Below are positions 15,219-62,634 of a stretch of 64,000 nt of DNA, piece after piece (the stretch's first letter is position 1; every line of letters starts with the position of its first letter). The notes beneath the pieces are model-generated. The model worked only from the letters and a program-made list of their open reading frames with translations, did no database searches and was not told the origin of the DNA. The stretch covers positions 1,164,577 through 1,228,576 of the forward strand of contig OZ242187.1 in assembly GCA_965205465.1 (NCBI GenBank). The letters run 5' to 3'. Origin of the DNA: Candidatus Aldehydirespiratoraceae bacterium. GTDB taxonomy: Bacteria; Actinomycetota; Acidimicrobiia; Acidimicrobiales; Aldehydirespiratoraceae. The position numbers and the translations under genes were made by a program.

Positions 15219-16937
15219 ATGGCTCAGCAATCTTCGGCGTCGGCTTCAGGTCGTCCTGTTACTGATTTTGTTCACGGTCGCGGGTTGCGTTGGGCGTCGT
15301 TTGTTTCGCTGTTGGTATGCGCTCTTTTTGCTGGTGGATTGGTTCTTGGGTCGGTGAACGCCATCGAATCCGAAACGTATTCGTGCCAACCGCCGGTGAC
15401 GCCGACTCACCCTTTCTCTGATGTGGGTGAAGACTCGTTCGCGTATGACGCCGTGGCCTGTATCTATCTGCTGGGTGTCACCACCGGCACCACGCCCACC
15501 ACGTTTTCACCCGACGAATACGTGACCCGCGAACAGATGGCTTCGTTCATGGCTCGGCTATACCAAGCCGTTACCGGTACCGAAGCTCCGGTCGTGTCGA
15601 CACCGTTCACTGACATACCTAGCGACTCGTTCGCACAAGATGACATCGCGCGAATCTATGGACTCGGCATCACCACCGGGACCACAACCACCACCTATTC
15701 GCCCTATTTTTTTGTGACCCGCGAGGAGATGGCGGCTTTCTTGGCACGGCTTTATCGAGCTGTTTATGACCAGCAGGCGCCGGTTGTGTTGACACCGTTT
15801 TTTGATGTGCCGTTGGACTCGTTCGCATACGACGACATTGGACGTATCTACGGGTTGGGTCTCACCACCGGGACCACAACCACCACCTATTCGCCCCACC
15901 TCAATGTGACCCGCGAGGAAATGGCGGCTTTCTTGGCGCGTTTCCGCCAACTCCCAGAACCCACAACCACAACCACCATCAACATCAACATCAACATCAA
16001 CATCAACGCAGACGACACCACTGATCCGCCTTCACCACCCCAAGACGACACCAGCGACGAGGACACCAGCGACCACGAAGCAACCTCGCCACGTGATATC
16101 GCCTTTCTCCGCACGAGTTCCAACAGCACCGGCGAGATCTGGGTAATGGACGAAGATGGTCGCAACCTGAAACAAATCACCAGCACGAACAACTCCGCCG
16201 AGGACCCGACGTTTTCACCCAACGGAACATACATCGCTTATACGGCTGCGAGCGCCACAAGCATCCTGCAGATTTGGGTCATGAACGCGGATGGCAGCAA
16301 CCCGATCCAGATCACCGAGGAACCTGAAGATCGAATAGCCGAATTTAGTGTTGATCCGTCCTGGTCAGCTGATGGCCAACGAATCGCCTACGTGAGTTAC
16401 GGCTCGAATCACGCTTTCGAAATATTCGTCATGAATGCGGATGGTTCCAACCCGCAACAGATCACCAGCAGTTATCTGCATCCACGACAGCCCCGGTGGT
16501 CACCCGACGGCATGCGCATCGCCTTCACCAGGACCAACGGCGACAAAGATAGTGTTCTGGTAATCGACGCGGACGGCACCGACCTGAAGTATCTCAGTTC
16601 TGCGTCCAGCTCTAGTAATGATCCGGCGTGGTCCCCTGACGGCACAAAAATCTCCTTCGCAAGTCACCAAAGTGGCGAAACAGAACAAATCTGGGTGATG
16701 GACGCTGACGGGACCAACCAAACACAGATCACCGGCGACGGCTACTCAAACTCAGAACCAGCTTGGTCACCAGACGGACGCATCATCTATGTCAGCAATC
16801 GAGGTCACGATGTCAAAGAAGAGATCTGGATCATGGATGCCGATGGCACTAACCAACAAGCCGTTACCAGCGACGCCCGCAATGAGTTGGACAGGCAGCC
16901 CACATGGTCATCAAGCGCCACTGATGCCCCCTCATAA
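15219..16937 (+). CDS. Secreted/anchored surface protein: 3 N-terminal SLH repeats + Thr/Ile-Asn linker + TolB-like (PD40) beta-propeller repeats
   Basis: N-terminal hydrophobic anchor. Three copies of F.D....FA.DD....Y.LG.T.GT....YSP...VTREEMAAFLAR (SLH-like). Repeated WSPDG/WSADG blades with IWVMDADG-type strands. Confidence 0.85.
   Translation: MAQQSSASASGRPVTDFVHGRGLRWASFVSLLVCALFAGGLVLGSVNAIESETYSCQPPVTPTHPFSDVGEDSFAYDAVACIYLLGVTTGTTPTTFSPDEYVTREQMASFMARLYQAVTGTEAPVVSTPFTDIPSDSFAQDDIARIYGLGITTGTTTTTYSPYFFVTREEMAAFLARLYRAVYDQQAPVVLTPFFDVPLDSFAYDDIGRIYGLGLTTGTTTTTYSPHLNVTREEMAAFLARFRQLPEPTTTTTINININININADDTTDPPSPPQDDTSDEDTSDHEATSPRDIAFLRTSSNSTGEIWVMDEDGRNLKQITSTNNSAEDPTFSPNGTYIAYTAASATSILQIWVMNADGSNPIQITEEPEDRIAEFSVDPSWSADGQRIAYVSYGSNHAFEIFVMNADGSNPQQITSSYLHPRQPRWSPDGMRIAFTRTNGDKDSVLVIDADGTDLKYLSSASSSSNDPAWSPDGTKISFASHQSGETEQIWVMDADGTNQTQITGDGYSNSEPAWSPDGRIIYVSNRGHDVKEEIWIMDADGTNQQAVTSDARNELDRQPTWSSSATDAPS
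15978..16007 (+). repeat. In-frame hexanucleotide repeat (atcaac)x5 encoding (IN)5 in the linker
   Basis: Read directly from the sequence. Confidence 0.9.
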
Positions 16938-17002
16938 GTACTTGGACTTGGACCTGGGAAGCATCCACCACTAAACGGCAATACTGAAATAATTTTGTCC
17001 CT

Positions 17003-19027
17003 GTGGTCCGACATTTTTTCGACAATGCTTTAGGTCGCCCTGTCACAGCCATCGTCAACGATCGCAGGGCCAGGTTGGGACCATTCGTTTCGCTGCTGGT
17101 CTGTGCTCTCATTGCTGGCGGACTAGTCCTGGCTTCAGTAAACGCGAACGACATCAAGTTGCGAGTCTGCCCGAGTCCCGAAGCGCCAGTTCACCCTTTC
17201 ACCGACGTATCTGAAGACTCGTTCGCATACGACGACGTGACCTGTATCTATCTACTCGGAGTCACCACGGGTACCAGCCCCACCACATATTCTCCTGACC
17301 GCTATGTGACCCGCGAGGAGATGGCCGCTTTCATGGGACGGCTCTATCGGGCTGTTACTGGTCTGGAAGCCCCGATCGTGCCGACTCCGTTCACCGACAT
17401 GCCGACTAGCTCGTACGCATACGAACACTTGGGGAGAATCTATGGACTCGGGATAACCACTGGTACCAGCCCCACCACATACTCTACTTACTTTTTTGTG
17501 ACCCGCGAGGAGATCGCTTCGTTCATGGCTCGTTTTTATCGAGCAATCAGTGGGAGCGAAGCACCGATCGTGGAGACACCGTTCACCGATGTACCAACCG
17601 ACTCATACGCATACGACGATGTCGCACGAATCTATGGACTAGGGCTCACCACCGGCACTGGCCCAGAGGAATATTCACCCGAGAGGCACATGACACGTGA
17701 GGAAATGGCTTCATTCTTGGCGCGCTACTACCGACTGCTTCCCAGTCCCAGCGAGCTGGAGATATTGCGGAGAAACAGCCTCCTTGCGTCAACGACACAA
17801 CCGCCGACCATCACACAACCGCCGACCATCACACAACCGCCGACCATCACACAACCGCCGACCATCACACAACCGCCGACCATCACACAACCGCCGACCA
17901 TCACACAACCGCCGACCATCACACAACCGCCGACCATCACACAACCGCCGACCATCACACAACCGCCGACCATCACACAACCGCCGACCATCACACAACC
18001 GCCGACCGCAACGCTTCCACCACTCAACAACCCCGCGACTTGCACTCGAAGTAGTATCTCAAGTCACGCCATCGCCTTCGCCCGTTCGTTCTCCCACAGC
18101 GAGGGCACCCTACAAGTCTCAACCATCGGTGAGATCTGGATTTCAAACGAAGACGGCACGAATCTCTGCCGACTCACCAACACCAATGACGGAAGCAAGC
18201 ATCCCGCATGGTCACCCAACGGCGCCTACCTCGCCTACACGGGCCCTGGCTTGAACGGCAGCGACTCGCAGATCTGGGTGGTGAACGCCGACGGCAGCAA
18301 CGCACGGCAGATCACAAGCGCCCCGTCAACCGCCCCCTGGGAGTTCAACTTCAACCCAACCTGGTCACCTGACAGCACCAAACTCGCCTTTCGCGGCCAC
18401 GCCGACGGCACAGCCGATCTTGACCTGCACATAATTGACGCGGACGGGACCGACCAGCGACGAGTGAGTTCCACGTATCACAAAGCAACGGAACCCTCGT
18501 GGTCTCCAAACGGCAGAAAGATCGCCTTCACCAAGTACGGCGACTCCAAGTGTAGGGACGGGATTCCGATTTCGGGAGATGCAGAGATTTGGGTGATGAA
18601 CGTCAGCGACGGAGTGGCAACGCAACTTACCGGACGCGATTCCAGCACTGAACCTGCCTGCGTCGACAAGGAACCTCAAACGTACGGCACGGAGTATCAT
18701 GCCACTCATCCCGAGTGGTCACCGGACGGCACCAAGATCGCCTACACCGGGGGCCGTGGAGGTATCGACACAGCAGTGTGGGTTATGGACGCCGATGGCA
18801 CCAACAAGATGAGACTAACCAGCGTGGCCGGCTATTCGACACAGCCATCCTGGTCACATGACGGCACACAAATCGCCTACTCAACATTTGCAGGTACCGG
18901 GTTCGGTACTGAAATCTGGATCATTGACGCCGACGGCACCAACCCGCAAAGAATCACCTATCACCCAGACGAAGTGATCGACGGCAATCTGACCTACATC
19001 AGAGATTCCGAACCAACCTGGCGCTGA
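17003..19027 (+). CDS. Paralogue of 15219-16937: 3 SLH repeats + (TQPPTI)n linker + PD40 beta-propeller repeats
   Basis: Same N-terminal anchor (GRPVT...FVSLLVCAL.AGGLVL.SVNA) and SLH triplet. Multiple WSPNG/WSPDG/WSHDG blades. Confidence 0.85.
   Translation: MVRHFFDNALGRPVTAIVNDRRARLGPFVSLLVCALIAGGLVLASVNANDIKLRVCPSPEAPVHPFTDVSEDSFAYDDVTCIYLLGVTTGTSPTTYSPDRYVTREEMAAFMGRLYRAVTGLEAPIVPTPFTDMPTSSYAYEHLGRIYGLGITTGTSPTTYSTYFFVTREEIASFMARFYRAISGSEAPIVETPFTDVPTDSYAYDDVARIYGLGLTTGTGPEEYSPERHMTREEMASFLARYYRLLPSPSELEILRRNSLLASTTQPPTITQPPTITQPPTITQPPTITQPPTITQPPTITQPPTITQPPTITQPPTITQPPTITQPPTITQPPTATLPPLNNPATCTRSSISSHAIAFARSFSHSEGTLQVSTIGEIWISNEDGTNLCRLTNTNDGSKHPAWSPNGAYLAYTGPGLNGSDSQIWVVNADGSNARQITSAPSTAPWEFNFNPTWSPDSTKLAFRGHADGTADLDLHIIDADGTDQRRVSSTYHKATEPSWSPNGRKIAFTKYGDSKCRDGIPISGDAEIWVMNVSDGVATQLTGRDSSTEPACVDKEPQTYGTEYHATHPEWSPDGTKIAYTGGRGGIDTAVWVMDADGTNKMRLTSVAGYSTQPSWSHDGTQIAYSTFAGTGFGTEIWIIDADGTNPQRITYHPDEVIDGNLTYIRDSEPTWR
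17795..18010 (+). repeat. 18-bp tandem repeat acacaaccgccgaccatc: 11 perfect copies plus 1 degenerate copy (encodes TQPPTI)
   Basis: Units counted directly at 17795, 17813 ... 17975. The last unit (17993-18010) ends in ...gaccgca. Confidence 0.95.
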
Positions 19028-24993: not shown

Positions 24994-27480
24994 TTGAGCG
25001 CTAGAGTCACCGGTGTGAGCGGAAGCGCTTCCCATACTCCCGGCGCGCGAGCGTCCACACAGGCCATTGAGAACTACCGATTTCGCCAACGGCTGATACC
25101 CGTATCCCTGCTCCTCGGAGTCTCGCTCACGTTGGCATCGGTATTCTTATTCGCGTCGGCGAGTTCAGCGCAGGATCCAGTCACGAACCGGATTGAATGC
25201 AGCGACGCCACCGATGATTTCGTGCTGTTGTGCCTCGCCTTCGAGGCAGTGGTCAACAATTTTGTGGATGGCGTAGTTGTAGTGGACTTGGCAGACGCCG
25301 CCAAACAAGGCGTGATAGACGCCAACCTTGCTGAGCGAACGACTGATACGCCGCCCTGTGCATTACCAGCGCCCGAGTTTGAGGACATGTGCGCCGAGAT
25401 CGACAAGGCGGAAGACACCACCGCTGCCGCGGTCGCCGCGACCGATGCGATGTTGGCATCGCTCAACGAGGCGCGGACCCGTCGTTTGACGCCGGCCCAG
25501 CACCGTTCATTCGACGACATCCTGAGTCCTGAAATCACCAGAATCGGAATCGGTATCGAGTTTGCGTTGCTGGACACTGACGGGAATCCCTGCACAACCC
25601 CGAGCGATACCTGCCGCCTGCTAATTCTGGAGGTCTATTCACCGAGTCCCGCAGAAACAGCCGGTTTGATGGTCGGTGATGTAATCGTCGCGTACGGCAA
25701 AGTAGTTGCGGACAACCCCTGCAGGGATCTACGAAGTCTGGACTACGGCCACGACCTTGGAGACACCGTGTCGGTGTCGATACTTCGCAATGGCACAGCC
25801 ATGGATTTTGACTTGGTGACCGCAGAAGTCATCGATCCAGTGGTATTCAGTCAGATTGTCGACGGCAACGTCGGTTACATCCAACTTGACATTTTCGCGA
25901 CCGGTTCTCCGGAGACGTTTCTGGCGCACTTGACTAGTCTGATCGATGCGGGAGCCAAGGCGATCGTGGTGGATCTTCGAAACAACCCGGGCGGTTACCT
26001 CACTGAAACGAGCCTGATTTCCGCTGCTTTCCTCAATGATGGTGACCTTGTATATCGCATTGCCTCGGTTCACTCGGATCAATCCGCGAATTCAAGCGGG
26101 GATGGCATAGCTGCAGATGCGATCGCGTTTCCAATGGCGATAGCCGTCAATGGTCGTTCAGCCTCGGGTTCTGAGCTTTTTGCTTTGGCAATGCGCGGGA
26201 ACAGCCGAGCAAAGATCGTTGGCAGCACCACTTTCGGCAAGCACACGGGGCAGCAGACATTTGCCGCTGAGGCGTCAGATGGTACGTCGTTGGGTGCAAT
26301 ACAGGTGACATCGTTGAGATTCTTCGGGCCGGGCGACCTCAGCTCTGCGGGCGGAATCCAACCTGATTTCGTCGAATCAATATCGGACTGCGCACATCCC
26401 ATCGGTGTTGTACGTCAGTCAGTGCCGTCGCTGTATCCCCGAGTGTCGGAACTCTCCCTTACGTCTATGCCGGCCTCGGTTGCCTACAAGTCAGGCGAAA
26501 AAGTCACGGTGGCTGTCTCTTTTGATGCTCCGGTATCTGTTGATACGGCAAACGGAAAGCCATACCTTGAGTTGCAGGTGGGAACCGAAGTGCGTCAGGC
26601 CGTATATAAGTCGACATTGACGAGCAACGGTGTCAGCGTCGTTGATTTCGAATACACAGTGGCAAACGACACTGACGATGACGGCATCAGCATTGAGCAG
26701 GACTCGATCGTCGGTAACGGCGCGACCATACGCAGGCGTGGTGCTGGTTGGGACGCGATCCTCGACCATCCGCTGCTTGCCGCGGAGATCAACCGCGCCG
26801 TGACCGAACCCCTCATTATTGACCCCGTGATAATCGACCCGGTGACAGTGGAACCAGAACCCGAGCCAGAACCCGTCGAACCCGACCGCTATTTCAGTGA
26901 CATCTCTCACACATCCTTTATCGAAGCGATCAACTGGCTGGCTGAACAACAGATCACCCAAGGTTGCGGACAAGACACGTTCTGCCCGGATCTACCCGTC
27001 ACCCGCGGCCAAATGGCCGCCTTCTTGAGCCGAGCACTGCAACTACCCGCCGCCGACCAAGACTATTTCAACGACGACAACAACTCGACGTTCCAAGACT
27101 ACATCAACCGCCTCATACAAGCCGGAATCACCCAAGGTTGCGGACAAGACACATTCTGCCCAGATCTATCCGTCACCCGCGGCCAAATGGCCGCCTTCTT
27201 GAGCCGAGCACTGCAACTACCCGCGGCGGACCAGGACTATTTCAACGACGCAACAACTCGACGTTCCAAGACTACATCAACCGCCTCCGACAAGCCGGAA
27301 TCACCACGGGTTGCGGGCCAACTACTTTCTGTCCCGACGAGTCCGTCACCCGCGGCCAAATGGCCGCCTTTCTTTATAGAGCTCGTGACCTCATCGAGGC
27401 CGCCCGTCAACAAAACTTGTGAATCCAGCAGTCATCGACTTTCGTTCAAAACTGCCGCTCTCGGCCCTTTGCGTGGTTAG
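24994..27480 (+). CDS. Secreted S41 (tail-specific/C-terminal processing) peptidase with PDZ, an Ig-like domain and C-terminal SLH-like repeats; 3' end disturbed by a 1-nt frameshift (the intact frame would stop at 27422)
   Basis: PDZ (GLMVGDVIVAYG), S41 core (DLRNNPGGYL, NGRSASGSELFA, GSTTFGKHTGQ). Two intact copies of F.D...F...IN.L...GITQGCGQDTFCPD..VTRGQMAAFLSRAL. A third copy is readable only in the -1 frame (track ORF 26964-27422). The start codon is uncertain. Confidence 0.8.
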   Translation: MSARVTGVSGSASHTPGARASTQAIENYRFRQRLIPVSLLLGVSLTLASVFLFASASSAQDPVTNRIECSDATDDFVLLCLAFEAVVNNFVDGVVVVDLADAAKQGVIDANLAERTTDTPPCALPAPEFEDMCAEIDKAEDTTAAAVAATDAMLASLNEARTRRLTPAQHRSFDDILSPEITRIGIGIEFALLDTDGNPCTTPSDTCRLLILEVYSPSPAETAGLMVGDVIVAYGKVVADNPCRDLRSLDYGHDLGDTVSVSILRNGTAMDFDLVTAEVIDPVVFSQIVDGNVGYIQLDIFATGSPETFLAHLTSLIDAGAKAIVVDLRNNPGGYLTETSLISAAFLNDGDLVYRIASVHSDQSANSSGDGIAADAIAFPMAIAVNGRSASGSELFALAMRGNSRAKIVGSTTFGKHTGQQTFAAEASDGTSLGAIQVTSLRFFGPGDLSSAGGIQPDFVESISDCAHPIGVVRQSVPSLYPRVSELSLTSMPASVAYKSGEKVTVAVSFDAPVSVDTANGKPYLELQVGTEVRQAVYKSTLTSNGVSVVDFEYTVANDTDDDGISIEQDSIVGNGATIRRRGAGWDAILDHPLLAAEINRAVTEPLIIDPVIIDPVTVEPEPEPEPVEPDRYFSDISHTSFIEAINWLAEQQITQGCGQDTFCPDLPVTRGQMAAFLSRALQLPAADQDYFNDDNNSTFQDYINRLIQAGITQGCGQDTFCPDLSVTRGQMAAFLSRALQLPAADQDYFNDATTRRSKTTSTASDKPESPRVAGQLLSVPTSPSPAAKWPPFFIELVTSSRPPVNKTCESSSHRLSFKTAALGPLRG
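27246..27254 (+). other. Frameshift site: 'aacgacgcaacaactcg' versus 'aacgacgacaacaactcg' in the preceding repeat (one A missing)
   Basis: Direct comparison of repeat 2 (27066-27090) with repeat 3 (27241-27260). Confidence 0.85.
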
Positions 27481-34905: not shown

Positions 34906-36030
34906 TTAGTCGATAGCAAGCAACGCTTGGGAGCGTTGTAGGGAGTCGATGCACTCCTCCACTAGTTCAAAGACGACATCCGCGCTGCGCTTCACTTTGT
35001 TCATGGATCCGACGATCTGACCAACAGGGTTGAAGGCAACTTGTTGGGCCTTGTCGGGGTAACGACCGCTTCTCACCATCGCCTCGCGTACTGCCATCAT
35101 CTGCAACGGCATTCCCAAAGTGTCGGGAGTCTCAGGCCGTTCCCATGCCTCGGTCCAGTCGTTGCGCAGCATTCGGCACGGTTTTCCCGTATATGAGCGG
35201 GAGCGCACCGTGTCCTTGCTGGTGGCATCAAGGAAGGACTGAATTTGCGCTGGTGGTCCCGCCGCTTCTTCCACGGTCAGCCACAAAGAACCGGTCCATA
35301 CTCCTGCCGCTCCCATGGCCAAAGCAGCAGCCATCTGACGACCCGAGCCGATCCCCCCAGCGGCGAGCACCGGAATCGGCGAGATCGCATCGATTACCTG
35401 GGGCCACAACACCATCGAACCGATGTCTCCGGTGTGGCCACCTCCCTCGTAGCCTTGGGCGATCACGAAATCGAGGCCGGCCGCAGCGTGGCGACTCGCT
35501 TGAGCGGGTGTGCCGCAGAGCGCTCCGACCGCCCGACCACTTGCCTGGATTTGCTCGACGAGATCTGGCGGCGGAGTCCCCAAAGCGTTGGCCACCATAA
35601 CCGCGTTGTCGTGACGCAAAATCTCTTCGACCTGGGGAACAGCGGTTGCTGCGTTCCAGCCCATTAGCCCGCTACCGAGCTCTTCGTCGGTCGGTAACTC
35701 TGGAACCTCGTGCTTGTCAAGCATCTCCCGTACAAACTGCCGGTGCTCGTCTGGGATCATCGACTGGAGTTGGCCTGTCAACTTGTTGAGGTCCATCTCG
35801 TCGGCACCGTCGTACTTGGCTGGCAGCACGATGTCTACGCCATAGGGCTTGTCACCGATGTGTTCGTCGATCCATTCGAGTTCGATCCTGAGCTGTTCCA
35901 CACCGAAGCCCACTGCGCCCAAGACGCCCAATCCACCCGCCTTGCTCACAGCGACCACAACGTCACGGCAGTGCGTGAACGCGTAAATCGGGAACTCAAT
36001 ACCAAACCGTTGAGTCAACTCGTTCTTCAT
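34906..36030 (-). CDS. Nitronate monooxygenase family FMN oxidoreductase (paralogue of 19060-20217)
   Basis: FPIYAFTHCRDVVVAVSKAGGLGVLG, with the same domain order as the paralogue. Confidence 0.85.
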   Translation of the reverse strand: MKNELTQRFGIEFPIYAFTHCRDVVVAVSKAGGLGVLGAVGFGVEQLRIELEWIDEHIGDKPYGVDIVLPAKYDGADEMDLNKLTGQLQSMIPDEHRQFVREMLDKHEVPELPTDEELGSGLMGWNAATAVPQVEEILRHDNAVMVANALGTPPPDLVEQIQASGRAVGALCGTPAQASRHAAAGLDFVIAQGYEGGGHTGDIGSMVLWPQVIDAISPIPVLAAGGIGSGRQMAAALAMGAAGVWTGSLWLTVEEAAGPPAQIQSFLDATSKDTVRSRSYTGKPCRMLRNDWTEAWERPETPDTLGMPLQMMAVREAMVRSGRYPDKAQQVAFNPVGQIVGSMNKVKRSADVVFELVEECIDSLQRSQALLAID

Positions 36031-36086
36031 GGGTTCAACCGTAGCGGTGCTTTGCTTTCGCCGGGCCTAACCGGAGCCGCGTCAAC

Positions 36087-36132
36087 TTCGCCGGGCGTAG
36101 CCGGAGCCGCGGAAGGTCAGTCTTGCGGGGAT
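36087..36132. repeat. Left copy of a perfect 46-bp direct repeat (ttcgccgggcgtagccggagccgcggaaggtcagtcttgcggggat)
   Basis: Identical to 37702-37747 on base-by-base reading. It is preceded by one related ~30-bp unit (36055-36081). Confidence 0.95.
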
Positions 36133-36210
36133 GTTGACCGGTGGATTCAGGCTTAGTGCCGTGTAGTGGCTTGGCGAACCAAGACGCGAGATACCTAATT
36201 GGACCATAGT

Positions 36211-36223
36211 TTGACGGTATAAT
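36211..36223 (+). promoter_or_regulatory. AT-rich promoter-like region; perfect TATAAT at 36218-36223 about 60 nt upstream of the HNH gene
   Basis: ttgacggtataat read directly. The -35 assignment is ambiguous. Confidence 0.3.
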
Positions 36224-36284
36224 ATTTCAATATTATCTATGATGTTCCCTGTATTGTCATAGCCATTTGATACTATAAAAACTA

Positions 36285-37610
36285 ATGAAATCTACAGTGG
36301 TAACCCAACCAAAACCGAGCACCGAAGACTCGTTCCATGTTGTCGAACTAGACGATGTAGGCGATGCTTTAGAAATAGCAGCCAAACTCGAATATGGTGG
36401 TTTGCCTGGTGCTGTGTTGGGTGATTCAACAGTGCGTGTCGCAGAGTTGAAAGCACAACTAGCGGCGTTGGAATCTGAGATCGTTGCCGCTTATGACGCC
36501 TCAGGCGATTGGCAGGTTTCAGGTTACCGAACCGTTGGCGCAGCGTTGACGCACCGCGCTCGGATACGGCGCTCAGAAGCCAACCAGACGGTTCAGTTGG
36601 CGCGTTCGCTCAAGGCAATGCCCCTCGTGTCTGACGCGCTCAGCAACGGTGAGATCAGTCTCTGTCACGCACGTCGGCTGGCCAAAGCCTCCACACGCAA
36701 CAGTTTCAGCGATGTTGAACCGTTGTTGTGCGACCATGCCCGCGGACTCAGTTACGCGGCTTTTGACAAGGCGGTGTCATATTGGGAACACCTCATCGAC
36801 ACCAACGCAGCCGAACATGACGCGACGTTCAAAGAACAACGCCGCGAGTTCCATGCGTCGATGACCTTCGACGGGATGGGACGCCTCGACGGATGGCTCG
36901 ACCCGATCAGCTTCGAGGCGTTCCGTAACGCTTTGGACCGCATCGAAGCCGAACTGTTCAACAACGACTTAAAAGATGCACAAGCCGACCACGCCGACAA
37001 ACACGCCGCTGAACTATGGCGCACACCCGCACAAAGACGCGCTGACGCCCTAATCGAGATGGCACGACGCGCCACCGCAGTACCCGAAGGCGCAAAGACC
37101 CCTGAACCGTTGGTGATCATCCACATGGACAAACCAACCTTCGAAACCGGCCTCAACCAGACCCTCGGCCCAACCCTGTACACCAACCCATCACCACCCA
37201 ACCAACCCCCACCCCCCGAAACCAACCGCGGCGACACCTCGACCGGCAAACTCTGCGAAACTGACCGCGGTGACATGTTGACCGGCAGACTCTGCGAAAC
37301 TGACAGCGGGGCGGTGATCACCCCAACCCAAGGCGTTGAACAAGCCCTCAGAGGCCACATCCGCCGCCTCGTCTATCAATCACCCGGCGTGATCTTGGAC
37401 TACGGCCGCTCCACCCGACTCTTCACCGGAGCGCTACGCCAAGCCATCCAAGCCCGAGACCGCACCTGCCGCCATCCCGGCTGCGACCTACCAGCCCGAC
37501 TATGCGAAATCGACCACATCACCGAATGGCAACACGGCGGCACCACCGTCCACACCAACGCTGCCACCCGCTGCTCCTACCACCACCGCCACCACAAACC
37601 CCCCATATAA
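36285..37610 (+). CDS. DUF222 domain / HNH endonuclease protein (13E12-repeat family type)
   Basis: The N-terminal region has AELKAQLAALESEIVAAYD...HARRLAKA (DUF222-like). The C-terminus has CRHPGCDLPARLCEIDHITEWQHGGTTVHTNAATRCSYHH (HNH). There is an internal 39-bp duplication (LCETDRGD...). Confidence 0.85.
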   Translation: MKSTVVTQPKPSTEDSFHVVELDDVGDALEIAAKLEYGGLPGAVLGDSTVRVAELKAQLAALESEIVAAYDASGDWQVSGYRTVGAALTHRARIRRSEANQTVQLARSLKAMPLVSDALSNGEISLCHARRLAKASTRNSFSDVEPLLCDHARGLSYAAFDKAVSYWEHLIDTNAAEHDATFKEQRREFHASMTFDGMGRLDGWLDPISFEAFRNALDRIEAELFNNDLKDAQADHADKHAAELWRTPAQRRADALIEMARRATAVPEGAKTPEPLVIIHMDKPTFETGLNQTLGPTLYTNPSPPNQPPPPETNRGDTSTGKLCETDRGDMLTGRLCETDSGAVITPTQGVEQALRGHIRRLVYQSPGVILDYGRSTRLFTGALRQAIQARDRTCRHPGCDLPARLCEIDHITEWQHGGTTVHTNAATRCSYHHRHHKPPI

Positions 37611-37634
37611 GACCAGCGCCCGGATTAGCCCAAC

Positions 37635-37765
37635 TTTGCTTTCGCCGGGCGTAGCCGGAACCGCGGAGATTTCGCCGGGCGTAGCCGGAACCGCGAGGAT
37701 TTTCGCCGGGCGTAGCCGGAGCCGCGGAAGGTCAGTCTTGCGGGGATTTCGCCGGGTACTAGCCG
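37635..37765. repeat. Tandem array of ~30-bp units ttcgccgggcgtagccggaRccgcg... (about 3.5 units); includes the right 46-bp direct repeat at 37702-37747
   Basis: Read directly. Confidence 0.9.
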
Positions 37766-37766
37766 A

Positions 37767-38747
37767 TCACTCGTCTTGGAGGGCGGGGATCACACGATCA
37801 ACGGTGAGCTCCAGGGACTCCCAGGCCGAGTCGATCGGCATACCCCCGACCAACGGGTGCAGCGCGAGCGCGCCCGTCTGGCGAACCCGGTCCACCGCCT
37901 GCTCTGGCGTCAAGAACTGGTAGATGCCTTCTGCACGCAGTTCTTCTTGGTTGGTGGCATGGGTATGGACCGCAGAAGTCTGGCCAGGGGGCTGCCACGA
38001 GTCATAAACCGAGGCCTCCAGCCAGAAGTGTCGGCCAAGTTCGGCCCAAGCCTCATCAGGATCGTTGACCACATGGACCATGGCTACCTGCTCCGGTGAG
38101 ATGCAGAACCCCTGCGTTCCCAGCCTTTCGCACTCGGCGTAATACAGTGCCTCAACCTCTGGGTTGGCCGCAGGGAGTTGCAGGGGCAAACCGAAGCGCG
38201 CCGCCCGCTTCGCCGCAGCCGGGCCGGAACCCCCGATCATCACCATCGGATGCGGGCGGGTGTAAGGCATGGGACCAACCTTGATCGTCGCGCCGTTGTA
38301 TTCGAACTCCTCACCTGACCAGACCTTCTGCATGGTTTCGAGGGCATGGTCGAGGATCTTGCCGCGACGTTTCCAGTCCTTTTGGACCGCGGCGTATTCG
38401 GCGGGGCGGTAACCAAGCCCCGTGGTGATCGCAATCCGACCCCTGCTTATCAGATCAATCACCGCTAGCTCTTGTGCCAAACGCACCGGATCGTGCAGCG
38501 GTACCAACAGCGCGGTGATCGCCACGGACAGGTTCTCGGTGCGGTTGAGAATCATCGCGGCGTTGAGCAGCGGCGTGGGGCTCCAACCGATCTCGGTGGC
38601 CTGATGTTCCTCAAGGCTCACCATCGCGAAACCGTTCTTGTCGGCGTACTCGGCGAGGTCGAAGCCGGCTCGATAGCGGTCACTCATCTGCGCTGGGTCG
38701 GTCGGGTCTGGATGCACGAAGTTGAGCCGCATCATCATGAAAGCCAC
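37767..38747 (-). CDS. Luciferase-like monooxygenase (LLM class flavin-dependent oxidoreductase)
   Basis: LAEYADKNGFAMVSLEEHQ, IDLISRGRIAITTGLGY and similar LLM motifs. Confidence 0.83.
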   Translation of the reverse strand: MAFMMMRLNFVHPDPTDPAQMSDRYRAGFDLAEYADKNGFAMVSLEEHQATEIGWSPTPLLNAAMILNRTENLSVAITALLVPLHDPVRLAQELAVIDLISRGRIAITTGLGYRPAEYAAVQKDWKRRGKILDHALETMQKVWSGEEFEYNGATIKVGPMPYTRPHPMVMIGGSGPAAAKRAARFGLPLQLPAANPEVEALYYAECERLGTQGFCISPEQVAMVHVVNDPDEAWAELGRHFWLEASVYDSWQPPGQTSAVHTHATNQEELRAEGIYQFLTPEQAVDRVRQTGALALHPLVGGMPIDSAWESLELTVDRVIPALQDE

Positions 38748-54700: not shown

Positions 54701-55644
54701 CTGGGCCCACGACCGTTGGCAGAGAACAGGGACCGCACACGGTGTTGGCCGTGTCTGGGATCAGCAAGAACTTCTCGGGCATCATCGCGCTCAACGACGT
54801 GAGTCTTACTGTCGAAGCGGGCGAAAGAGTGGGACTCATCGGCCCCAACGGTGCAGGCAAAACCACCTTGTTCAACTGTCTGCTGGGAATCTTGCGGCCC
54901 GACGCGGGAACAGTGGAACTCAACGGTGTCAATGTCACAGGCCATCGCGTTCACAAGCGAGCGCAAGCAGGAATGGGCCGCACGTTCCAACGAATCGAGC
55001 TGTTCACCGACACAACGGTACGAGAACACCTGCTCATCGCTGAGCGGGTCCGCAACGGCAACGGTGCTTTCTGGAAGGATCTATTGGGGCGGGGCAGGCC
55101 TACCGCGGCTGAGATCAGCGCTTGCGATGCCGTGCTCGAATTGCTGGGACTCGCCGAAGTCGCCGAGGTGCCGATCGAGTCTTTGAGTCTGGGGCAGGGT
55201 CGTCTCGTTGAGGTGGGACGGGCGCTGATGACCGACCCCAGGATCTTGCTGCTCGACGAGCCATCCTCGGGGCTTGATCGGGAGGAGACCAACGCCTTGG
55301 CTGCCACCCTCAGAGCCATCCAGAGCGAGCGCGGGTTCGCCATCTTGCTGGTCGAACACGATGTGGAGTTGGTGGCCGAGTTCACAACGCGGCTATACGT
55401 GCTCGACTTCGGGCAGTTGATCGCACAGGGACCAACCACCGAAACCCTCGCCGCGCCAGCCGTGCGCAACGCCTACCTCGGCAGTGCTGGCGCTGCGGAC
55501 GGTGCCGCAGATAGCGTTGCTAGCGCTGCGGACGGTGCCGCAGATAGCGTTGCTAGCGCTGCGGACGGTGCCACAGATCCGTCCCGCCCCGCGACGACGC
55601 CGCAGGCCCGTCCCAGTCGCGAACCCAAAGAGGGCGAGCTGTGA
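54697..55644 (+). CDS. ABC transporter ATP-binding protein (LivG-like) with repeat-containing C-terminal tail
   Basis: Walker A GPNGAGKTT, signature LSLGQGR, Walker B LLLDEP. GTGA overlap with the permease stop. Confidence 0.9.
   Translation: MTGPTTVGREQGPHTVLAVSGISKNFSGIIALNDVSLTVEAGERVGLIGPNGAGKTTLFNCLLGILRPDAGTVELNGVNVTGHRVHKRAQAGMGRTFQRIELFTDTTVREHLLIAERVRNGNGAFWKDLLGRGRPTAAEISACDAVLELLGLAEVAEVPIESLSLGQGRLVEVGRALMTDPRILLLDEPSSGLDREETNALAATLRAIQSERGFAILLVEHDVELVAEFTTRLYVLDFGQLIAQGPTTETLAAPAVRNAYLGSAGAADGAADSVASAADGAADSVASAADGATDPSRPATTPQARPSREPKEGEL
55492..55577 (+). repeat. 33-bp in-frame tandem repeat x2.6 (AADGAADSVAS) in the LivG-like C-terminus
   Basis: gctgcggacggtgccgcagatagcgttgctagc repeated; read directly. 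Confidence 0.9.
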
Positions 55645-56357
55645 CTGCGTTGCTGGAGCTTCGGGATGTACGGGCGGAATACGGGCCGTTTCGGGCGCTC
55701 TTCGGCGTTTCGCTGGAAATCGAGCCCGGGGGTGCGGTGGCGCTGCTCGGCGCCAACGGCGCCGGTAAGACAACCGTGGCACGCGTGGCCACTGGGCTAG
55801 TGCAAGCCAGCGCAGGCCAAGTGCTCGTCGACGGCAGCGAGATGACCGACAGCCCGACCTATGCCTACGCCCGGACCGGCATCGTTCACGCCCCCGAAGG
55901 ACGTTCAATATTCGCCACCTTTACGGTCGAGGAAAACCTCAACCTTTCGTTTCGGAGTTTTCTGGGGAAAGCGAAGGTCCGCGAATCGTTGGCAAAAGCC
56001 TTCGATCTGTTCCCCCGCCTGGGGGAGCGTCGTTTACAGATGGCCGGCACTCTGTCTGGCGGAGAACAGAGGATGCTTTCACTGGCCCGTGTCCTGGTGG
56101 TGCAACCCCGCCTGCTCATCGCTGATGAACTCTCCCTCGGCCTCGCTCCGATCGTGGTCGACGAGGTCTACACCACTCTGGAGGCGATTCGCAGTTCGGG
56201 CACCGCTCTGCTGATCGTAGAACAACACATCGGGCATGCCCTTGATCTGTGTGACGATGTGGTGTTACTCGAACACGGACGAGTTGCCTGGCAGGGATCC
56301 ACCACCGAGGCCGCCGAGGTCGTTGTCAACCGACTGTTCGAGTCGGGCGAATCCTAA
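55641..56357 (+). CDS. ABC transporter ATP-binding protein (LivF-like)
   Basis: Walker A GANGAGKTT, signature LSGGEQR, Walker B LIADEL. GTGA overlap with the upstream gene. Confidence 0.9.
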   Translation: MTALLELRDVRAEYGPFRALFGVSLEIEPGGAVALLGANGAGKTTVARVATGLVQASAGQVLVDGSEMTDSPTYAYARTGIVHAPEGRSIFATFTVEENLNLSFRSFLGKAKVRESLAKAFDLFPRLGERRLQMAGTLSGGEQRMLSLARVLVVQPRLLIADELSLGLAPIVVDEVYTTLEAIRSSGTALLIVEQHIGHALDLCDDVVLLEHGRVAWQGSTTEAAEVVVNRLFESGES

Positions 56358-56367
56358 GCCTGAATCC

Positions 56368-56396
56368 ACCGACGGGTTTGTGGGATCGTCGGTTTG
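56368..56396 (+). terminator. Weak hairpin (accgacg-N12-cgtcggt) followed by tt, downstream of the ABC operon
   Basis: A 7-bp perfect stem read directly, with a poor U-tract. Confidence 0.25.
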
Positions 56397-56445: not shown

Positions 56446-58305
56446 GTGAAACAAAGCCGGGACGACATTCGAAACATCGCCATGATCGCCCATGTCGACC
56501 ACGGGAAGACGACCCTCGTTGATGCGTTGCTGCGACAGACAGGGGCCTTTCGTGAAGGTGCCGCTTTAACAGACCGAGTGATGGACTCGATGGATCTGGA
56601 GCGGGAAAAGGGCATCACGATCATGGCCAAGAACACCGCCATTCGTTATGGGGGAGTCAAGATCAATATTGTCGACACTCCCGGCCATGCCGACTTTGGG
56701 GGCGAGGTCGAACGAGCACTCACCATGGTCGACGGCGTGGTGCTGCTCGTGGATGCGTCGGAGGGACCGCTGCCGCAAACCCGCTTCGTGTTGCGCAAGG
56801 CTTTGGAACTGCGGTTGTCGGTCGTCTTGGTGATCAACAAAATCGACCGTCCCGATGCCCGCATCTCAGCGGTGCTCGACGAGACGTACGAACTCTTTTT
56901 GGATCTCGACGCCGACGAGGAGCAGATTGAGTTCCCGATCGTCTACACCATTGCCCGACATGGCTTAGCCACCCTTGATCCCGATGTGGCTGCTACAGAC
57001 CTTCAGCCGTTGTTCGAGGCGTTACTCAACACCGTTCCGGCACCTGTACACGATCCGGACCATCCCATGCGGGCTTGGGTCACCAACCTCGACAGTTCTC
57101 CCTATGTTGGGCGCATCGCCTTATGCCGGGTCGAACACGGCACCATACGCAGAGGGCAGACGGTTGCCTGGTGCAGAGCCGACGGCACCATAGCAGCAGG
57201 CCGTGTAGGCACCCTGACGGTCACCGAAGCGCTGGAACGTGTTGATGTTGACGAGGCCGGGCCGGGGGAGCTCATCGGAGTATCAGGAATCGACGAGGTC
57301 ACCATCGGTGAGACGCTGGCCGACGCCGACGACCCCCGCCCGTTCCCGGCCATCACCGTTGACGAACCCTCGCTAGCGATGACGATTGGGGTCAACAACT
57401 CACCGCTGGCCGGTCGTGACGGCTCTAATCTGACCGCTCGGCTGATAAAGGCCCGGCTTGACCAAGAGCTGATCGGCAACGTGTCCATCCGGGTGTTCTC
57501 CACTGATCGCCCCGATACCTGGGAAGTCCAGGGCCGGGGAGAACTGCAACTGGCGGTGCTGGTCGAAACCATGAGGCGCGAGGGGTTTGAACTCACCGTC
57601 GGCAAACCCGAAGTGCTCACCCGAGAGGTCGACGGCCAGCGCCACGAACCCACCGAACGGCTCACCATCGATGTGCCCGAGGAACACACCGGCGCGGTCA
57701 CGCAACTGCTAGGCGGGCGAAAAGCTCGCTTACAGGACATGACCAACCATGGGACCGGATGGGTTCGGCTCGAATATGTGGTGCCTGCTCGGGCGCTGAT
57801 TGGTTTCCGCACGGAGTTCCTCACCCAGACGCGCGGCACCGGGCTGCTTCACCATGTGTTCGAGGGATGGACGCCATGGGCCGGAGATTTGGGAATGCGC
57901 CCCCGTGGCGCCGTTGTCGCCGACCGCAGCGGCGACACCACCGCATATGCGATCGCGGCTCTGCAGGAACGCTCAGCGCTCTATGTCGCCCCCGGGGTAA
58001 ACGTCTATGAAGGGATGATCGTCGGTGAAAACAGCCGCGGCCAGGACATGGACGTCAACGTGTGCCGCGAGAAGAAGCAAACCAACATCCGCACCCAATC
58101 AAGTGATGACACCGTGCGTCTTACCCCGCCCCGCCTGTTTTCGCTGGAGCAGGCGCTTGAAACCGTGACCAGTGATGAGTGCGTTGAGGTCACCCCGGCA
58201 GCGATCAGAATGCGCAAGATCATCCTCGATAATGGCGAACGGGCACGAACGCTCAAACGCCTCAAAGCACCACCCGAAGCCAATGTGCGTGCGTCGCACG
58301 GGTAG
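56446..58305 (+). CDS. typA: Translational GTPase TypA/BipA
   Basis: [33 protein letters not shown] and NKIDR G-motifs, with EF-G-like domain order. Confidence 0.95.
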
Positions 58306-60123: not shown

Positions 60124-62634
60124 GTGCGCCCTCGGCACAGTTCCCTAGATGTGCGTGCCACGACTAAGGCATCCGCCGATTGGGCGACCGTCGTGGCTAC
60201 TCTTGCGGTGATAATTCTCGGATTTTCCAGTTCGGCATCCGCGCAGATCTCCCCGGAGGTGACCATCCTGGATCCCAACCTCCGGGCTGCCATCGAACTG
60301 GAGTTGGGAAAGACCTCAGACGAAGTCATCACCCGGGCCGACATGGGGACCCTGGCCACCCTGACAGCAGAAGATTCGGGCATTAGAGACACAACCGGAT
60401 TGGAATACGCCACCAATCTCAACAGCCTCAATCTGGGCTTCAACCAGCTCTCGGAAATCGACGTCACCCCATTTGTCAACCTCACCACCCTGAAACTTGG
60501 CGACAACCAACTCTCGGAAATCGACGTCACCCCCCTCACCGACCTGACCACCCTCTGGCTTCACCACAACCAAATCTCAGAAATGGACGTCACCCCCCTC
60601 GTTGACCTCACAGCCCTCTGGACCTACGACAACCAGCTCTCGGAAATCGACGTCACCCCCCTCGTCAACCTCACCGATTTATGGATGAGCGACAACCAAC
60701 TCTCCGCGATCAACGTCGCCCCCCTAACCCAACTCGAACGACTCTGGATCTATGACAATCAGCTCACCGAAATCGACGTCTCCGCGCTCACCAACCTCAC
60801 AAGCGTCAACCTCAGTGGCAACCAACTCTCCGCGATCAACGTCGCCCCCCTAACCCAACTCACCACCCTGAGCTTGAGCGGCAACCAACTCTCCGCGATC
60901 AACGTCGCCCCCCTGACCCAACTCACCGAACTATTGATGACCGGCAACCAACTCTCCGCGATCGACGTCGCCCCCCTAACCCAACTCGAACGACTCTGGA
61001 TCTATGACAATCAGCTCACCGAAATCGAAGTCTCCGCGCTCACCAACCTCACAAGCGTCAACCTCAGCGACAACCAACTCTCCGCGATCGACGTCGCCCC
61101 CCTAACCCAACTCGAACGACTCTCGGTCGACCACAACCAGCTTTCCACGATCGACGTCGCCCCCCTAACCCAACTCACCACCCTGAACTTGAGCGGCAAC
61201 CAACTCTCCGCGATCGACGTCGCCCCCCTAACCCAACTCGAACGACTCTCGGTCAACCACAACCAGCTTTCCACGATCGACGTCGCCCCCCTAACCCAAC
61301 TCACCACCCTGAGCTTGAGCGGCAACCAACTCTCCGCGATCGACGTCGCCCCCCTAACCCAACTCACCGCCCTGGACTTGAGCGGCAACCAACTCTCCGC
61401 GATCGCCGTCGCCCCCCTAACCCAACTCGAACGACTCTGGGTCGACCACAACCAGCTTTCCACGATAGATGTCGCCCCCCTAACCCAACTCACACACCTC
61501 GATGTCTCGTTCAACCGCATCACTGACATTGGCTCGCTGAAAGGACTGACTGGTCTGACAAACTTGACAACATTGGGCCTCACTTGCAACCAAATCACCG
61601 ACTTCGCCCCTCTAGCCGCCCAAGAACAAGCTGGATTGACGGTTCACGGCAAAGACGATCAGAGTGGCACCGGCGACAGCGCCTCCCCCAACTGCCCAGA
61701 AATCGCGGGGGAAGACAATGACTCCGACACGCCGCCGCCACAGCCACGGCCGAAATTCACACAACCAGCCAACACACAACCAGCCAACACAAAACCAGCC
61801 AACACAAAACCAGCCAACACAAAACCAGCCAACACAAAACCAGCCAACACAAAACCAGCCAACACAAAACCGGAAGACACCGAAGAAGCAGAGCCGGAAG
61901 ACACCGAAGAAGCAGAGCCGGAAGACACCGAAGAAGCAGAGCCGGAAGACACCGAAGAAGCAGAGCCGGAAGACACCGAAGAAGCAGAGCCGGAAGACAC
62001 CGAAGAAGCAGAGCCGGACAGGCCCGTCCGGGTCGCCGCCTGCGACCTCGACCCCAGCAGTTCCACACAACCCTTCAGCGACGTCTCCGATAGCTCATTC
62101 GCATTCAACGATGTGGGTTGTCTAGTTGCGTTGGAAGTAACCAAAGGCACCAGTGAAACCACCTACTCACCCGGCCAAGCCGTCACCCGCGAACAAATGG
62201 CAGCATTCATCGCCCGCCTCTACAAAGCCATCACCAAAGAACCCGCTCCGCTATCAGAGACACCGTTCACCGACGTGGCACCCACCTCGTTCGCCTATGA
62301 CGACATCGGTCGTATTTTCGGACTCGGCATCACCAAAGGCACCAGTGAAACCACCTACTCACCCCAACAAACCGTCACCCGCGAACAAATGGCAGCATTC
62401 ATCGCCCGCCTCTACAAAGCCATCACCAAAGAACCCGCTCCGCTATCAGAGACACCGTTCACCGACGTGGCACCCACCTCGTTCGCCTATGACGACATCA
62501 GTCGTGTATTCGGACTCGGCATCACCAAAGGCACCAGTGAAACCACCTACTCACCCCAACAAACCGTCACCCGCGAACAAATGGCAGCATTCATCGCCCG
62601 CCTCTACCGAACGCTGACCAGCCCGAGCACCTGA
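60124..62634 (+). CDS. Secreted internalin-like leucine-rich-repeat protein with PANTK/PEDTEEAE repeat linkers and 3 C-terminal SLH repeats
   Basis: Signal peptide (...FSSSASA). About 20 LRRs of 22-23 aa (L..L.LS.NQLS.IDV.PLTQ). Three SLH-like units (F.DV....FA..D......G.TKGTSETTYSP...VTREQMAAFIARLY). Confidence 0.85.
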   Translation: MRPRHSSLDVRATTKASADWATVVATLAVIILGFSSSASAQISPEVTILDPNLRAAIELELGKTSDEVITRADMGTLATLTAEDSGIRDTTGLEYATNLNSLNLGFNQLSEIDVTPFVNLTTLKLGDNQLSEIDVTPLTDLTTLWLHHNQISEMDVTPLVDLTALWTYDNQLSEIDVTPLVNLTDLWMSDNQLSAINVAPLTQLERLWIYDNQLTEIDVSALTNLTSVNLSGNQLSAINVAPLTQLTTLSLSGNQLSAINVAPLTQLTELLMTGNQLSAIDVAPLTQLERLWIYDNQLTEIEVSALTNLTSVNLSDNQLSAIDVAPLTQLERLSVDHNQLSTIDVAPLTQLTTLNLSGNQLSAIDVAPLTQLERLSVNHNQLSTIDVAPLTQLTTLSLSGNQLSAIDVAPLTQLTALDLSGNQLSAIAVAPLTQLERLWVDHNQLSTIDVAPLTQLTHLDVSFNRITDIGSLKGLTGLTNLTTLGLTCNQITDFAPLAAQEQAGLTVHGKDDQSGTGDSASPNCPEIAGEDNDSDTPPPQPRPKFTQPANTQPANTKPANTKPANTKPANTKPANTKPANTKPEDTEEAEPEDTEEAEPEDTEEAEPEDTEEAEPEDTEEAEPEDTEEAEPDRPVRVAACDLDPSSSTQPFSDVSDSSFAFNDVGCLVALEVTKGTSETTYSPGQAVTREQMAAFIARLYKAITKEPAPLSETPFTDVAPTSFAYDDIGRIFGLGITKGTSETTYSPQQTVTREQMAAFIARLYKAITKEPAPLSETPFTDVAPTSFAYDDISRVFGLGITKGTSETTYSPQQTVTREQMAAFIARLYRTLTSPST
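61759..61863 (+). repeat. 15-bp in-frame tandem repeat x7 (T[Q/K]PAN)
   Basis: acaMaaccagccaac units counted directly. Confidence 0.9.
61870..62013 (+). repeat. 24-bp perfect in-frame tandem repeat x6 (PEDTEEAE)
   Basis: ccggaagacaccgaagaagcagag x6, read directly. Confidence 0.95.

Follow-up and report, generated by a model that had tools for sequence, protein, structure and literature searches.

A DUF222/HNH nuclease gene in a short-repeat array of an Acidimicrobiales genome: occupied and empty sites, a paralogous home locus and an IS1380-family end

In the 64-kb stretch of DNA analysed here (the window; 64,000 nucleotides of contig OZ242187.1 from a Candidatus Aldehydirespiratoraceae bacterium) a gene for a DUF222/HNH nuclease of the 13E12-repeat type lies within an array of short repeats and is bracketed by a perfect 46-bp direct repeat, raising the question of how the gene came to be there and what the bracket represents. 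A reading made from the letters alone (the sequence-only reading) had proposed either a pair of attachment sites (attL/attR) or a homing or recombination event into a pre-existing array. After comparison with related metagenome-assembled genomes (MAGs), whose loci are cited below by L numbers, we conclude that the bracket is duplicated array sequence and not an attL/attR pair. On balance we lean towards a single old capture of the DUF222/HNH gene, associated with an insertion sequence (IS), into an array that was already there, after which gene conversion and erosion set in. Movement by an integrase or by array-directed homing appears unlikely, IS-associated movement being the most likely.

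The perfect repeat and the occupied and empty sites

The 46-mer TTCGCCGGGCGTAGCCGGAGCCGCGGAAGGTCAGTCTTGCGGGGAT occurred exactly twice in the window, at 36087-36132 and, identically, at 37702-37747. Its initial 25 nt form a repeat unit (U), and U was found with two or fewer mismatches at 36057, 36087, 37641, 37671 and 37702, all on the plus strand and all at this locus, while it was absent from 100 dinucleotide-preserving shuffles of the window. The duplicated flank is longer than the perfect repeat, as 36050-36132 and 37634-37747 share a CTTTGCT prefix, units and a locus-specific 21-nt tail (GAAGGTCAGTCTTGCGGGGAT), the left perfect copy being the last 46 nt of the left array. The 1569 bp separating the 46-mers contained a single credible open reading frame (ORF), that of the nuclease (DUF222 E = 1e-24), along with a 13-nt IS end, a 133-bp AT-rich leader and a 23-nt 3' tail. 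The cassette is on the strand opposite to two co-oriented metabolic genes, one for a nitronate monooxygenase (NMO) on the left and one for a luciferase-like monooxygenase (LLM) on the right, with a P450 gene beyond LLM. Coordinates are collected in Table 1. In these respects the sequence-only reading held up: it had reported the identical 46-mers, two left-hand and about 3.5 right-hand units (five copies of U and a partial unit after the fifth), one HNH/DUF222 ORF between them and its membership of the family that marks the REP13E12 repeats. The comparison of GC profiles that it suggested gave a GC content of 0.385-0.445 in 200-bp windows spanning 36100-36399 against about 0.55-0.66 in the surroundings.

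The cassette was present between the NMO and LLM genes in five genomes, namely the window, CBDFKX (L057/L032), CBDHCN (L004 and L005) and those of L063 and L067. In OZ240617 (L052) and in VXYK (L048), the most divergent genome compared, the site was empty: the HNH gene was absent and one array separated the NMO and LLM genes. The flanking proteins at this site were about 96-98% identical across the compared genomes (96.5-97.9% amino acid identity for the NMO orthologues in L052, L004, L048 and L032 and about 97% for the LLM orthologues). The left junction, made up of the array tail, GTTGAC, CGGTGGATTCAGG and CTTAG, was the same in the window, L057, L063 and L067, and CBDHCN carried a secondary deletion there; an identical left junction across occupied genomes points to one insertion event. 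The left array architecture of the window was also found in L067 and L063, and in a shorter version, with a single unit, in L057. In the empty L052 the array ran prefix, U, TCAAC, TTTGCC, U, TTAAC, U, 21-nt tail, partial unit and LLM stop codon, and this single array is the counterpart of the right array of the window.

The 21-nt tail was confined to the NMO-LLM site among the loci compared. The empty L052 had one copy, L057, L063 and L067 each had one on the left side of the HNH gene, and only the window had two. The right arrays of L057, L067 and CBDHCN retained just GGGAT or GGGGT, remnants that a 16-nt deletion between GCGG repeats would yield, and on that side L063 had lost the tail altogether. 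This distribution indicates that the ancestral occupied allele had array sequence including the tail on both sides, and from it we read a target duplication that spans no less than 46 bp and may reach about 86 bp, best preserved in the window. The perfect 46-bp pair itself was seen in the window lineage only, the right array being eroded in the other four occupied genomes. Synonymous divergence among the occupied lineages was 0.10-0.17, at which a neutral 46-bp pair dating from the insertion would be expected to differ at several positions, and zero differences between the two 46-bp copies despite this divergence suggest that they were homogenised or recently exchanged and are not a fresh insertion scar. 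Between the window and its closest relative, L067, identity was 97.5% over the left flank and gene and 95.7% to the right of the cassette, a drop that places a recombination breakpoint at the right junction.

The repeat itself proved to be generic. In a scan of one genome per species the exact 25-mer was found at 54 loci in about 15 MAGs, and among these loci an HNH gene stood beside the unit only where the locus was syntenic with the NMO-LLM site of the window. No 25-nt units were found near the HNH gene copies at three other loci. As the unit is a dispersed family with 54 loci, almost none of them near an HNH gene, the bracket is to be regarded as array material.

The home locus and the insertion-sequence end

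Close homologues of the nuclease (88-93% amino acid identity) were found at the DUF948/alaS-mgsA locus of L055, L056, L058, L064, L065 and L066, and a lineage at 80% identity (L068-L070) had an HNH copy in the same alaS/mgsA region. This locus is more widely conserved than the occupancy of the NMO-LLM site, and it looks like the home locus of the gene in this Acidimicrobiales clade. OZ240617 has an empty NMO-LLM site and yet a home copy at alaS/mgsA (L055), and CBDFKX has HNH copies at both loci (L056 and L057, respectively home and NMO-LLM). By sequence comparison the window gene is thus a second, paralogous DUF222/HNH copy. At the DNA level the window is homologous to the home copy exactly from 36152 (CTTAG) to 37610 (stop codon), indicating that the copied unit is the ORF together with the 133-bp AT-rich region upstream of it, and this upstream region was conserved among the paralogues. 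The 23-nt 3' tail beyond the homology was common to the other occupied NMO-LLM genomes and resembles the 3' flanks of the L061 and L055 paralogues, where similar tails follow the gene away from any array; by eye it matches a degenerate half array unit at 11/14 positions, and it may instead belong to the array and not to the cassette.

Distant paralogues were present at other loci (L061, and L062 where the gene is interrupted by ISL3), and three DUF222/HNH-family proteins were listed on one 5.16-Mb contig. Several loci and several copies per contig indicate that the family is multi-copy and mobile on an evolutionary time scale. The two copies within CBDFKX were 97.9% identical, while copies from different genomes were 93-95% identical whichever locus they came from. 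Identity higher within than between genomes marks concerted evolution of the two paralogues by gene conversion. Gene conversion hot spots have been described at the REP13E12 loci of Mycobacterium tuberculosis (PMC13061034).

The 13 nt directly before CTTAG in the window are the reverse complement of CCTGAATCCACCG, the exact terminal inverted repeat of elements found in L065 and L017. L065 carries a complete 1613-bp element, with a CTTAG target duplication, at the corresponding CTTAG in front of the HNH gene of the home locus. Its ends were set by comparison with the uninterrupted L066, its inverted repeats were CCTGAATCCACCG and CCTGGATCCACCG, and its transposase matched NCBIfam NF033539 (IS1380 family equivalog) with E = 1.8e-85. 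Other copies of the element were found at CTAAG or CTTAG (L017, L053), with a CTAAG target duplication in L017. In the three copies examined, position 5 of the inverted repeat was A at the end downstream of the transposase gene and G at the upstream end. The remnant in the window is of the A type (right inverted repeat, IRR), suggesting that the transposase gene of the lost element was directed at the HNH gene, the reverse of the orientation seen in L065. The window therefore holds only the 13-nt end of an IS1380-family element, the complete transposase, repeats and 5-bp duplication being seen in relatives; at the NMO-LLM site the element body is gone and its left boundary lost.

From this anatomy we infer the order of events, the element as the mover and the origin of the duplication. 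An IS1380-family element would have inserted at CTTAG upstream of a DUF222/HNH gene, with its right end abutting CTTAG. Element and gene would then have been transposed, or a fragment spanning the element end and the gene captured at a break, into the LLM-NMO array, where the non-palindromic 25-nt repeat was already in place; this would have happened once, in an ancestor of several present lineages. The cassette of about 1.5 kb (36133-37633) comprises the 6-nt filler, the 13-nt IS1380-type end, the 133-bp leader with CTTAG as its start, the nuclease gene and the 23-nt tail. The body of the element would later have been lost, leaving 13 nt. The array sequence may have been duplicated when a break at the element was repaired by copying U and the tail from the downstream array and then by end-joining, which would also account for the filler; alternatively, a staggered break may have been filled in, or the array may already have been tandemly duplicated. 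Afterwards the paralogues would have been homogenised by gene conversion while the arrays expanded, contracted and recombined, and in some lineages an IS5-like element would have arrived on the right side and decayed. The site is now polymorphic, either occupied or empty.

Several points weigh against this account. No complete IS was found beside the HNH gene at the NMO-LLM site in any genome examined, and the IS may have inserted later at a favoured CTTAG, as happened separately and in reverse orientation in L065, only to be deleted again. The target duplications of IS1380 elements are 5 bp long, which leaves a duplication of 46-86 bp unexplained, and the array has no CTTAG target. A search for terminal inverted repeats of the cassette, or for a convincing surrogate IS end in the 3' tail, returned only GGATT-AG by eye, and as an alternative right end this is a weak inverted-repeat match. 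The comparison of occupied and empty sites covers just a few MAGs and 2.1 kb of sequence flanking the cassette. As for gain or loss at L052, a tree of NMO and LLM (2106 columns) gave a star-like ingroup with conflicting site patterns and no usable bootstrap support once rooted, and the L052 junction GCCGCGTCAACTTTGCC would also be expected from a deletion between short CAACTT repeats of an occupied allele.

To a reading in which the gene is ancestral at the NMO-LLM site and was deleted from the empty sites when the arrays on its two sides recombined, a loss and not a gain, we allow a substantial but lesser probability. By distance the empty OZ240617 nests among occupied genomes, its internal junction TCAAC-TTTGCC is the expected product of a CAACTT-microhomology deletion in an occupied allele, and direct repeats of at least 46 bp favour such deletions. 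However, the outgroup L048 is also empty, and the sharp limits of homology to the home locus, together with the IS end at the junction, call for an insertion at some point. The loss reading concerns the history of L052 only and is compatible with IS-associated capture. That the cassette landed between two tandem modules (prefix, units and tail, twice) that were there beforehand, the empty alleles having later contracted to one, seems to us unlikely. Both empty alleles are single-module, with a single tail in L052, an extra contraction step is needed for each empty lineage, and the filler and IS remnant are left unexplained, although composite tandem modules of 59-96 nt are common in the repeat family (L048, L009, L027, L039), unit number varies between close relatives and the L048 array is even inverted.

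Homing driven by the nuclease is in our judgement a little less probable still. Here the DUF222/HNH protein would itself attack the array or its edge, fill-in of staggered nicks at a distance of 46-86 nt would accompany the copying or ligation of the gene into the break, and the long flanking duplication would be a signature of the enzyme. Over 50 further arrays of U lack an HNH gene, HNH copies at three other loci lack nearby units, the same junctions in all occupied genomes indicate one event in the history of the clade, and the cassette is abutted by an IS end and not by array sequence; a literature search turned up no cleavage data for any DUF222 protein. On the other side stand an intact, conserved HNH motif in a multi-copy gene family under purifying selection, a best local fold match to an HNH nicking endonuclease (4h9d), and a copied unit that hugs the ORF and its candidate promoter in the manner of free-standing homing endonuclease genes. 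Paired nicks yield long duplications in paired-nickase genome editing, and a long duplication is what homing by such nicks would be expected to leave. Of the alternatives put forward by the sequence-only reading, insertion into a pre-existing array agreed with our comparison and homing keeps a small probability, the IS1380-family end at the 5' junction pointing to IS-associated movement instead. Its remark that the duplicated flank is too long for an ordinary transposase target duplication was sound, and the empty sites (L052, L048) and other gene copies (alaS/mgsA and further loci) that it predicted do exist. It would have been abandoned had the repeats been common independently of HNH genes and all sites been filled; the repeats are common in this way, and two sites are empty.

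What did not survive was attL/attR, in which a site-specific integrating element, now a prophage or island remnant, would have recombined at the 46-mers, much as REP13E12 serves phiRv1 as an attachment site in M. tuberculosis, and we hold this to be highly improbable. Neither integrase nor recombinase accompanies the DUF222/HNH gene, which is alone between the repeats; the unit is a generic dispersed family (54 loci, mostly without an HNH gene), the four further occupied genomes have not kept the 46-bp bracket, and HNH copies at other loci lack the repeat. The M. tuberculosis prophage attachment site lies inside the REP13E12 repeat, whereas the 46-mers flank the gene. The perfect direct repeat of the window and the link between REP13E12 and a putative prophage attachment site (PMC13061034) are what speaks for it.

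The nuclease gene, the repeat family and other features

Over residues 51-267 the 441-aa protein matched Pfam DUF222 (PF02720), scoring 87.9 bits where the cutoff is 24.4 (E = 1e-24). The Pfam HNH model was below threshold on it (E = 0.012, 16.2 bits against a cutoff of 21.4), while a precomputed PF01844 match was present in several homologues. Its HNH motif reads C395-x4-C400...C407..D410-H411...N425...C430..H433, and among 35 homologues C395, C400, D410, H411 and C430 showed no variation, while conservation of C407, N425 and H433 was 90% or higher. The AlphaFold model had a mean per-residue confidence (pLDDT) of 77.8, and its C-terminus superposed locally on HNH nucleases, namely the Gme nicking endonuclease 4h9d (probability 0.97), McrA 6ghc and 5zmm, with further local fold matches to ParB/Noc. 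Foldseek matches were local only, with E > 0.3, giving nothing firm on the DUF222 fold beyond a hint of a ParB/Noc-like helix-turn-helix. A sequence search of the PDB with the window protein gave no significant match, an exact-protein look-up no record, and a metagenome contig scan only two distant fragments at 41-47% identity, which added no contexts.

The DUF222 and HNH domains are joined by a disordered linker (pLDDT < 50 for residues 302-334), in which a 39-bp tandem repeat of the gene specifies ETxRGDxxTGxLC. Orthologues of 428, 441 and 492 aa differed by whole 13-aa units, with 1, 2 and about 6 copies of the repeat respectively, and copy number was higher in the distant L061 and L062 paralogues. 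All nine copies of the gene compared were intact, and the ratio of nonsynonymous to synonymous divergence (dN/dS) among them was 0.19-0.43, against 0.02-0.11 for the flanking NMO and LLM genes. The nuclease gene is therefore maintained under purifying selection with relaxed constraint, as expected of a working gene, and its product is probably a selfish or domesticated DNA nickase or nuclease.

Within the AT-rich 5' region the conserved TTGTCATAGCCATTTGATACTAT was picked out by eye as a possible extended -10 promoter of a leaderless mRNA. A promoter scan of 36152-36284 gave promoter-like sites on the minus strand only. Two of these, at 36203-36260 (-), were sigma-70-like matches at 10/12 and 9/12 positions that point toward NMO and away from the HNH gene; going by consensus match only, they could replace NMO transcription that was cut off from LLM by the insertion. 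No Rfam family matched 35500-38300 at E <= 1, and the idea that the array or leader might be a guide RNA or a structured RNA was given up.

Further traces of insertion sequences were noted. A second solitary 13-nt end, CCTGAATCCACCG, was found at 56359-56371 of the window, immediately preceded by CCTAAG and with no transposase nearby, in the gap that separates the end of an ABC-transporter ATPase gene (stop codon; 55641-56357) from typA/bipA (56446-58305), and is by its sequence another decayed IS1380-family copy at the preferred CTWAG target. Differently deleted fragments of an IS5-like transposase were present in L057 (5346-5530), L063 (4346-4610) and L067 (4346-4620) between the HNH 3' tail and the right array, all starting with GGCTTAAGGAGCCGCGC and encoding the peptides ...LRPDRGYDY... 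and ...RWIVESTNSWL..., and were absent from the window and CBDHCN. The neighbourhoods of HNH genes also gather IS256 (L055), ISL3 (L062) and IS1380 (L065) elements.

Table 1. Features of the cassette and its flanks in the window, and in-frame arrays of the 25-nt unit at other loci
Feature	Position (strand)	Details
NMO-family gene (nitronate monooxygenase)	34906-36030 (-)	Left flank; start codon toward left array; Pfam NMO E = 7.8e-43
Left repeat array	36050-36132 (+)	Prefix CTTTGCT; unit 36057-36081 (2 mismatches); spacer TCAAC; unit 36087-36111; tail 36112-36132
Junction filler	36133-36138 (+)	GTTGAC, 6 nt, between array tail and IS remnant; identical in window, L057, L063, L067
IS1380-family terminal inverted repeat remnant	36139-36151 (+)	CGGTGGATTCAGG, 13 nt; IRR type
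AT-rich 5' region	36152-36284 (+)	133 bp; starts with CTTAG; copied along with the gene
DUF222 + HNH nuclease gene	36285-37610 (+)	441 aa, intact; 13E12-repeat-type protein
In-frame tandem repeat	37217-37309 (+)	Period 39 bp, 2.4 copies, 85% matches
3' tail	37611-37633 (+)	GACCAGCGCCCGGATTAGCCCAA, 23 nt; stop codon to right array
Right repeat array	37634-37757 (+)	Prefix CTTTGCT; units 37641-37665, 37671-37695, 37702-37726; tail 37727-37747; partial unit 37748-37757
LLM gene (luciferase-like monooxygenase)	37767-38747 (-)	Right flank; stop codon toward right array; Pfam Bac_luciferase E = 2.1e-37
AMP-binding (acyl-CoA-synthetase-like) enzyme	L031:2246-2444; L034; L040	In-frame array
NuoL-like protein	L006; L018:5166-5316; L030	In-frame array
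GltB	L016:5001-5240	In-frame array
Thiamine pyrophosphate (TPP) enzyme	L041:7478-7562	In-frame array
ABC transporter	L003:3182-3326; L042:6480-6612	In-frame array
P450	L002:1125-1191	In-frame array

The hosts of the 25-mer were all Acidimicrobiales MAGs, labelled Candidatus Aldehydirespiratoraceae, Acidimicrobiaceae, Acidimicrobiia or Acidimicrobiales, plus one Microthrix. Sponge-type bin names, for example SB0670 and RHO3, occur among the Acidimicrobiaceae MAGs, many of the MAGs look sponge-derived, and the actinobacterium of the window is probably sponge-associated. The arrays are direct, with 1-10 copies of the unit, array-specific spacers and periods of 30-96 nt. In L048 (6453-6595) the LLM-NMO array is inverted and has a 59-nt composite period in which U alternates with the variant unit TTCGCCGGGCGCGGCAGCCGCG, suggesting that arrays are rebuilt or re-seeded in place. 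The 25-nt unit was less stable than shuffled sequence (z = +1.4 and +1.6 on the two strands), and folding of the 53-nt module gave z = -0.5 and -0.05. As the unit does not fold it is not a palindrome of the repetitive extragenic palindromic (REP) type, and a reading as REP or bacterial interspersed mosaic element (BIME) was rejected for want of a hairpin-forming imperfect palindrome. A reading as clustered regularly interspaced short palindromic repeats (CRISPR) was rejected since the spacers are 5-35 nt long and identical within an array.

In several species, arrays of the unit also lie within long ORFs that match Pfam families strongly, and there they keep the reading frame (Table 1). Five of the six frames of the unit have no stop codon, the periods of the coding arrays (30, 36, 42, 45 and 60 nt) are all multiples of 3, and the encoded peptides are (D/S)AAPATPGE modules in antisense and SSPGVAGAA modules in sense. 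At the same position of the same gene, unit number varied across species. The 25-nt unit looks like a coding-tolerant mobile minisatellite, and a literature search on in-frame repeats in sponge Acidimicrobiia found no description of one. If this is true, the repeat colonises both intergenic spacers and the loops and linkers of housekeeping proteins, as in-frame AAPATPGE or SPGVAGAA modules. The presence of the repeat in frame within essential genes of several species may be a more original observation than the cassette. The linked proposal, that the unit is an undescribed coding-tolerant mobile minisatellite of Acidimicrobiales and that the cassette entered by a nick-based route duplicating 46-86 bp of its target, we consider improbable as a whole; if true, nick-based entry would be the first mechanistic footprint of the movement of a 13E12-type HNH gene.

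The window also contains long coding tandem repeats at 15588-17652, 26953-27370, 60481-61498 and 62140-62607 that are unrelated to the cassette. They include a leucine-rich-repeat-like array of 63/126/252 nt and repeats of 174-192 nt that by eye resemble S-layer homology (SLH) domains, and fit the eukaryote-like and surface-protein repertoire expected of a sponge symbiont.

Comparison with known systems

DUF222/HNH genes are widespread and multi-copy in Actinobacteria and form recombination hot spots in M. tuberculosis, with function and movement undefined (PMC13061034). The locus described here is a natural experiment on such genes, offering a site filled or empty in close relatives, a donor-type home locus, exact limits of homology, an IS end and ongoing gene conversion. 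It suggests that DUF222/HNH genes can be passengers of IS1380-type elements, instead of or besides being self-propelled homing genes, and it warns that long perfect direct repeats beside such genes can be by-products of a local array and not attachment sites.

The cassette belongs to an already known kind of element and is distinct in its host and in an insertion polymorphism with an IS footprint. The DUF222-HNH genes of M. tuberculosis are those of the '13E12 repeat family' (Gordon et al. 1999, as cited in PMC10589994). REP13E12 has the same DUF222 family with a C-terminal HNH motif in a gene-sized repeat of about 1.4-1.5 kb, and it shares with the window gene the paralogous copies per genome, homogenisation by gene conversion and the lack of a defined function. 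Unlike REP13E12, the window gene is in Acidimicrobiia (about 59% GC), shows an occupied/empty polymorphism with defined junctions, lies within an array of unrelated short repeats and carries an IS end, and no prophage or integrase was found at any locus examined.

ISEcp1, the best-known member of the IS1380 family, mobilises downstream genes such as blaCTX-M by one-ended transposition (PMC3316993). The element of the relatives likewise has 13-nt inverted repeats starting with CC and a 5-bp target duplication, and the remnant right end abuts the 5' side of the window gene, the orientation in which ISEcp1 mobilises downstream DNA. In contrast to ISEcp1 units, the window has only 13 nt of the element and a flanking duplication of 46-86 bp, the cargo is a nuclease gene and not a resistance gene, and no 5-bp duplication around a unit of element plus gene can be demonstrated. 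With free-standing HNH homing endonuclease genes the window shares a gene-sized unit of an HNH ORF and a candidate promoter, presence/absence polymorphism and paralogous spread; it differs from them in having no intron or intein context, in its one insertion event and in the IS end at its junction.

For the 25-nt family the nearest likenesses are the mycobacterial interspersed repetitive units (MIRU), dispersed minisatellites often found between genes of one operon, and the Rickettsia palindromic elements, which are found in frame inside protein-coding genes. Like these, the family consists of short direct tandem units at many loci, between genes or in frame, whereas the 25-nt unit is non-palindromic, has variable array-specific spacers and is identical across many species-level genomes.

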